A model generated the notes under the pieces. It made no database searches, was not told where the DNA came from, and saw only the letters and a program-made list of their open reading frames with translations. The position numbers were made by a program, and so were the translations under genes. Shown piece by piece: positions 35,286-35,771 of a stretch of 64,000 nucleotides of DNA. Source of the DNA: Dictyostelium discoideum (taxonomy: Eukaryota). Each line of letters begins with the position of its first letter. Positions within the stretch are counted from its first letter, which is position 1. Location of the stretch: the NCBI GenBank assembly GCA_000004695.1, contig CM000151.3:7936001-8000000 (forward strand), given 5' to 3'.

Positions 35286-35372
<87 letters not shown>

Positions 35373-35771
35373 CATCTTATCATCATTATTAAATTCATAA
35401 CTATCATTATCATTGTTAATTATACTATTTATTTTATTTTTATTGAAAATCTTATTGTGATTTGCGAGGCTATTAGGAATAAAGTGGCCACTATTAAAAA
35501 ACTGACTATTATTATTGTTGTTATTGAAAAATTGGTTACGATCATTTGAAGATCTATTTATATCTGAGTAGTGTCTGTTATTGCTAAAGGGAAGATAAAT
35601 TTTATTGCTACATTGTAAATTATATTCTGGTATCTCGATACCATATATTGGTGATTCATTATTCTTATTTATAAAACTACGACTTGGTGTTAAAATATCA
35701 TTCTTATTTTCTTCGTTATTCTTTTTGTTGCTATTGTAATTATAATGTTCATTTATATTGTTTTCATTATA

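Follow-up and report, generated by a model that had tools for sequence, protein, structure and literature searches.

A frame break beside a triplet-repeat run in a tandem-homeodomain gene of Dictyostelium discoideum, probably hbx6, is most probably an error of the reference sequence

On the minus strand of a 64 000-nucleotide stretch of Dictyostelium discoideum DNA (the window, very probably AX4 reference chromosome 2), a homeobox gene is broken where two reading frames, shifted by one, meet. The locus raises the question of whether this break belongs to the organism or to its reference sequence. The initial annotation had offered two explanations, an indel error of the reference and a frameshift allele specific to the strain, and both are still standing after the analysis described here. 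The first is preferred: we infer, with a probability of roughly two in three as estimated from assembled sequences, that the frame break results from faulty base calling at the border of an (AAT)n run.

The features of the gene are listed in table 1. The upstream part of the long exon (frame A, SYQHNYFNGDG...SYEFNNDDK) contains no ATG in any of its 254 open codons. Frame B begins precisely at the second copy of an 8-mer repeat and runs without a stop through poly-N, the minisatellite and more poly-N and low-complexity runs into the two homeodomains; its first start codon, the ATG at 34662, opens a 514-aa ORF. This layout bears out the initial annotation, which had described a coding upstream block in one frame, a second frame open as far as the homeodomains and a meeting of the two at a perfect 8-bp repeat, located here as an 8 + 8 repeat on the + strand. 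Frame A was also said there to run into about 30 residues of poly-Ile when read without correction, and 30 Ile after a Met were seen. Exact look-up of the product of this read-through ORF found no gene on record; the ORF is meaningless and exists only as the (AAT)n run and the minisatellite are open in two frames. Intron 1 is very AT-rich and contains a long A run.

Table 1. Coordinates of the gene and of the frame junction in the window.
Feature	Position	Strand	Description
Exon 1	36336..36353	-	ATG GAT CAT AAA TTA CCT = MDHKLP, six codons, gene start
Intron 1	36138..36335	-	198 nt, GTACCT...CTTAG; splicing predicted from conserved sites
Exon 2, frame A part	35376..36137	-	254 codons, N-rich, includes conserved non-repetitive block
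Frame junction	35369..35384	-	GATGATAA GATGATAA
Frame A read-through ORF	34770..35375	-	M, 30 x Ile, poly-Thr, (TPHTIT)n, stop
Exon 2, frame B part	33118..35376	-	752 codons + stop
18-bp minisatellite encoding (PTHNHN)n	34838..35124	-	15.9 copies, TRF
Homeodomain 1 (HD1)	33415..33570	-	residues ~365-416 of the 514-aa ORF; best Pfam PF00046 stretch and PDB homeodomain alignments
Homeodomain 2 (HD2)	33184..33351	-	residues ~438-493 of the 514-aa ORF; second Pfam stretch; CDX2, DLX5 and engrailed alignments to query residues 92-147

Comparisons were made with seven NCBI assemblies, three of D. discoideum, two of D. cf. discoideum and two of D. citrinum. The locus in GCA_054883475.1 was found by exact look-up of the 514-aa ORF, and the six further loci were obtained from the 90% cluster of a neighbouring LUD-domain protein and taken with 10-kb flanks. 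Exact look-ups of two more ORFs of the window, made to extend the flanks, found nothing. All seven apparently come from one project and one technology, and they match the strain set of Holland et al. (PNAS 2025, PMC12745789), which comprises AX2-214, wild D. discoideum CR116C and OT3A, the cryptic species M4B and S6B and D. citrinum isolates, assembled with Nanopore plus Illumina. GCA_054883475.1 is probably AX2-214. In the window, two tandem LUD-domain paralogues lie at 26538-27218 and 28365-29039 (226 and 224 aa, ~79% DNA identity); the fetched locus of D. cf. discoideum ACTFIZ has a single annotated LUD copy, and in D. cf. discoideum ACTFIY an additional LUD-like gene lies between the two LUD copies.

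A single continuous ORF of 868-1073 codons, from S/KYQHNYFNGDGFN to DDSY..SDEG, was found in 7/7 other assemblies, and the window alone among the eight sequences has a split ORF (455 + 752 codons). When the proteins of the seven genomes were aligned with the window, the frame A block was collinear with the N-terminus of the single ORF and frame B with the remainder, and the frame B translation was identical to the C-terminal 752 residues of the intact ORF of GCA_054883475.1, the product of which has 1012 residues. Against D. citrinum, pN/pS was 0.19-0.20 in the upstream block (98 non-repeat codons), 0.18 in the homeodomain region and 0.12 in the middle block. Because its ratio is close to that of the homeodomain region, the upstream block is, as judged from these alignments, coding sequence of the homeobox gene, read in frame A and under purifying selection.

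The 5' end of the gene is conserved as well. The annotated start is the ATG at window position 36353 in 7/7 other assemblies; exon 1 reads MDHKLP or MGHKLP, and MDYHKLP or MDHHKLP in D. citrinum (six or seven codons); and the donor CCT|GTACCT and acceptor CTTAG|AGT are conserved in 8/8 sequences, with intron 1 differing in length among genomes by steps that are not multiples of three. The exon and intron boundaries given in table 1 follow from the conserved start, exon and splice sites, the predicted long exon extending from 36137 to 33118. On these comparisons the locus is one gene, and its intact state is ancestral. The initial annotation had likewise taken both blocks as a single gene of more than 1000 codons, frameshifted in the window, and had proposed a comparison with other isolates; with that comparison made, every other D. 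discoideum assembly is intact and the window alone is broken.

Strains differ widely in the length of the (PTHNHN)n minisatellite and of the runs of Asn, Ser/Gly and Thr, every such change preserving the frame; the non-repetitive blocks of the gene are conserved across the compared genomes. D. discoideum ACTFIR lacks the entire segment from poly-N through the minisatellite, and D. cf. discoideum ACTFIY carries a long (GS)n expansion in the gene.

Pfam PF00046 was matched in two stretches (53.3 bits against a gathering cut-off of 22.9, E = 2.5e-14), and PDB homeodomains, including an engineered tandem engrailed, align to both. In the engrailed alignment HD1 has S-F-R-H-R-R (SFRHRRE; Trp48>Ser, Asn51>His) and HD2 has Y-F-K-G-K-R (YFKGKRA; Trp48>Tyr, Asn51>Gly). 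Phe49 and Arg53 are retained in both, and the canonical recognition-helix set of Trp48, Phe49, Asn51 and Arg53 is complete in neither. Asn51, which both domains have lost, is normally invariant in homeodomains. Each of the seven orthologues, from D. discoideum, D. cf. discoideum and D. citrinum, has the same recognition-helix residues in both domains as the window. The domains are, by their residues, divergent homeodomains with putative DNA binding.

With the C-terminal 175 residues as query, a HMMER scan over 1.84 billion representatives gave no orthologue; the best matches were tandem-homeodomain proteins of no more than 38% identity. Tandem-homeodomain proteins with a WFKHKRE third helix (P0002, P0003 and P0036, N-rich and of dictyostelid type; P0005, P0009 and P0019, from other eukaryotes) carry two homeodomains ~15-20 residues apart, as here, with 28-38% identity over both, but the domains in the window differ from theirs in having neither Trp48 nor Asn51. 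The N-terminal ~830 residues (the upstream 254 plus the 577 before the homeodomains) showed no similarity to any of the 78 HMMER matches. Neither the upstream block nor the homeodomain region retrieved any sequence from a protein word index, itself included, and the family is apparently absent from that index.

The gene is probably hbx6 (DDB_G0277505). XP_642591.1 / DDB_G0277409 of D. discoideum AX4 is matched exactly by the neighbouring ORF at 28365..29039, and hbx6 shares its identifier range with this neighbour. In Forbes et al. 2019 (PMC6873476), hbx6 is one of 14 D. discoideum homeobox genes, the only hbx there with a DDB_G0277xxx identifier, and is given as lacking orthologues in D. purpureum, D. 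lacteum, P. pallidum and D. fasciculatum. Such an absence outside the close clade agrees with the 38% identity ceiling and with the presence of the gene in D. cf. discoideum and D. citrinum. A search of the main texts of the literature on hbx6 found nothing relevant. The candidate models (read-through, 26-nt intron, 50-nt intron and intact 1012-aa) were not found in the protein collection; a control protein from L004, one of the six further loci, was missing from it too, so that the absence of the models carries no information.

Pairwise and multiple alignments of the window with GCA_054883475.1 gave exactly two differences inside the gene: a T in place of G at 35382 (GAG>GAT, Glu>Asp), and the absence of one G between 35377 and 35376 (AAGG>AAG). 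The window thus reads GATGATAA-GATGAT where GCA_054883475.1 has GAGGATAAGGATGAT; with flanks, the aligned junction is AATAATGATGATAA-GATGATAAT in the window and AATAATGAGGATAAGGATGATAAT in GCA_054883475.1. In D. discoideum ACTFIR it is GAGGATAGTGATGAT and in D. discoideum ACTFIW GAGGATAGTGATAAT. Intact alleles have one base more (GAGGATAAG|GATGAT) and a G where the window has T, and on the aligned sequences the ancestral junction reads Glu-Asp-Lys/Ser-Asp. The perfect 8-mer repeat, which on the + strand is TTATCATCTTATCATC, that is, TTATCATC twice, arises secondarily, from an imperfect 9-nt repeat that has lost 1 nt and taken up a substitution.

The initial annotation had seen the 8-bp tandem duplication as the lesion itself. 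This part of it did not hold, as intact alleles are 1 bp longer and not 8 bp shorter; they do not carry a single copy of GATGATAA, which rules out an 8-bp insertion as the mutational event. The duplication merely appears causal because -8 and +1 are equal modulo 3. Perfect 8 + 8 tandem repeats occur at 34 loci in the window, against ~10 expected under a third-order Markov model, so such a repeat is ordinary in this DNA and only its placement at the frame junction is informative.

Whether the two changes arose in the organism or in the assembly was judged from the differences between the window and GCA_054883475.1 as a whole. The two have identical lengths for all triplet repeats and for the minisatellite in the 3-kb gene, at which every wild strain differs, and substitutions separate them in 40 of 18 196 ungapped columns, against ~980 for wild strains. 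As far as their sequences tell, they are one clonal lineage. In 33 of the 40 columns both wild D. discoideum agree with GCA_054883475.1, in 4 with the window (all inside poorly aligned poly-T), and 3 are mixed. The 33 window-unique changes comprise 31 transversions and 2 transitions, and differ in this from natural isolated differences between strains (136 transversions, 228 transitions; Fisher p = 8e-11). They fall into 8 clusters, whose distances to a homopolymer or microsatellite are 2-58 nt (median for random positions, 83 nt). The junction is separated from the (AAT)n run by 8-10 nt and is the sole discrepancy within an ORF over the 20 kb compared with GCA_054883475.1.

Window-unique substitution clusters were located at 22567-22664, 30801-30826, 30926, 32831-32837 and 37549-37800, all within 58 nt of simple-sequence tracts, and are probably errors of the reference sequence. 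The 37549-37800 block was also tried as a clean inversion, which was rejected, the forward alignment (85%) being better than the reverse (73-78%). A/T homopolymers also differ in length, those of the window being always longer and those of GCA_054883475.1 shorter (e.g. 36199-36207, 26232-26245, 29955-29960 and 23539-23543); these differences are likely to come from Nanopore compression and were left out of the error evidence. A 100-N assembly gap lies at 16030-16129 of the window; together with the exact AX4 match of the neighbouring ORF, it points to AX4 reference chromosome 2 as the source of this DNA.

Because they are mostly transversions and are clustered near simple-sequence tracts, the window-unique differences resemble artefacts. 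Nitrosoguanidine mutagenesis yields mainly G:C>A:T changes. The observed spectrum fits a base-calling or consensus artefact at tract edges in an older Sanger assembly, and not spontaneous or nitrosoguanidine mutation. Frameshift-type reference errors of the Sanger era combine the loss of a single base with a miscalled one beside a long triplet repeat, as here; also as here, they are contradicted by re-assembly of the same lineage and by the frame of relatives, and are accompanied by clustered, transversion-only discrepancies near homopolymers. The window is contradicted both by the same-lineage assembly and by the outgroups.

According to the preferred reading, the gene consists of a six-codon exon, a predicted intron of ~198 nt and a single exon of ~3 kb, and its product is an Asn-repeat-rich protein of ~1012 residues with two atypical homeodomains at the C-terminal end. 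The long exon is broken in the window at the 5' edge of the (AAT)27 run: one G is missing and, five bases upstream, T stands for G, which makes a perfect GATGATAA x2 out of GAGGATAAG|GATGATAA and puts the sequence out of frame by one. The cause would be a base-calling or consensus error, made in the reference assembly where a simple-sequence tract adjoins, and if so, the frameshift is absent from the organism. Against this reading, two changes 5 bp apart that make a perfect repeat could be the outcome of a single template-switch or slippage event, and systematic errors shared by seven assemblies of one technology could explain part of the intergenic odd-one-out pattern. An intact 1000-codon ORF in seven differing sequence contexts lies beyond what a common technology can account for.

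The alternative is a real and recent frameshift allele of the AX3/AX4 lineage, formed by loss of the G and the G>T change, perhaps in one slippage or template-switch event at the imperfect 9-nt repeat; we regard this as possible though unlikely. The protein would then be truncated after ~260 residues and lose both homeodomains in AX4, with AX2 and the wild strains intact, an outcome that we consider doubtful while giving it some weight. AX2 and AX4 are independent derivatives of NC4, which makes a change private to AX4 possible. Consistent with such an allele, the lesion is unique to the window among the eight genomes, the intact state being ancestral, and the two changes perfect an imperfect repeat, as templated mutations do. 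The gene is moreover young and lineage-restricted, without an orthologue beyond the discoideum/citrinum clade, and may be dispensable in axenic culture. The lesion nevertheless resembles the ~30 window-unique differences that do not look like mutations (transversions, clustered, adjacent to simple tracts) and is the only within-ORF difference in 20 kb. The base-substitution rate of D. discoideum is very low, which makes a two-hit cluster unlikely a priori. If the allele is real, AX4 would carry GATGATAAGATGATAAT at the junction, and a lineage-specific frameshift would place GATGATAAGATGAT in AX4 (and AX3) and not in NC4 or AX2.

It is very improbable that the homeobox gene starts at Met 34662 to give the 514-aa protein, with an upstream block that is non-coding or forms a gene of its own. 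The annotation of GCA_054883475.1 does have two genes, of 320 and 514 aa, and the ATG at 34662 is the first start codon of frame B. The 320-aa model, however, needs a spurious 59-nt intron into a poly-Gln frame, and the other six annotations show a single gene. A continuous ORF spans both blocks in seven genomes, which have nothing of intergenic type between them, and the upstream block is under purifying selection in frame A. The initial annotation had named orthologues with a separate upstream gene as an observation that would speak against it; the orthologues keep both blocks in a single ORF.

Still less credible is a short spliceosomal intron that would join the frames in the mRNA, leaving the reference correct and the protein intact. 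Such an intron had also been named at the outset as a possible refutation, and all GT..AG pairs of a length of 2 mod 3 that keep both frames open were scanned exhaustively. Pairs of this kind exist, for example at 35425-35376 (50 nt, GTATAA..AAG) and 35401-35376 (26 nt), but a consensus donor, GTAAGT or GTATGT, is absent from every candidate, whatever its length. Dictyostelium introns have a mean length of ~146 nt; the candidates nearest to the junction (26 and 50 nt) are far below this typical size, and longer ones would remove conserved coding sequence. The stretch is moreover in frame and conserved as coding sequence in 7/7 other genomes, where excising 50 nt would break the frame. The scan gave no plausible intron. 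Least probable of all is programmed +1/-2 ribosomal frameshifting at the repeat, which has the frame geometry in its favour and nothing further, and for which there would be nothing conserved to decode, as the close relatives have no frame change here.

If the break is a base-calling error, gene models built on this reference will either truncate to the 514-residue C-terminal ORF or invent an intron, and the conserved N-terminal region is lost or distorted in either model. Faulty models spread by lift-over, and the annotation of GCA_054883475.1 already splits the intact ORF. That annotation divides the intact 1012-codon gene into L001:3318-4528 (320 aa) and L001:5001-6545 (514 aa), and the spurious 59-nt intron of the 320-aa model, at L001:4416-4474, enters the poly-Gln frame. 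The other discrepancies in these 20 kb warrant caution with the AX4 reference next to simple-sequence tracts.

Should the frameshift be real, AX4 would lack a homeobox factor that is present in AX2. The AX4 and AX2 backgrounds would differ genetically in a way that has gone unrecognised, AX2 and the wild isolates keeping the gene under purifying selection. In that case the D. discoideum reference strain in widest use would be, though we think the chance of this a minor one, a natural null or severe truncation of a young, clade-specific tandem-homeodomain factor, probably hbx6. Under the preferred reading of a reference error, the frame break most probably has no counterpart in the biology of the organism, and its value lies in correcting the reference sequence and the gene model; knock-out, tagging and expression constructs should follow the ~1012-residue model.
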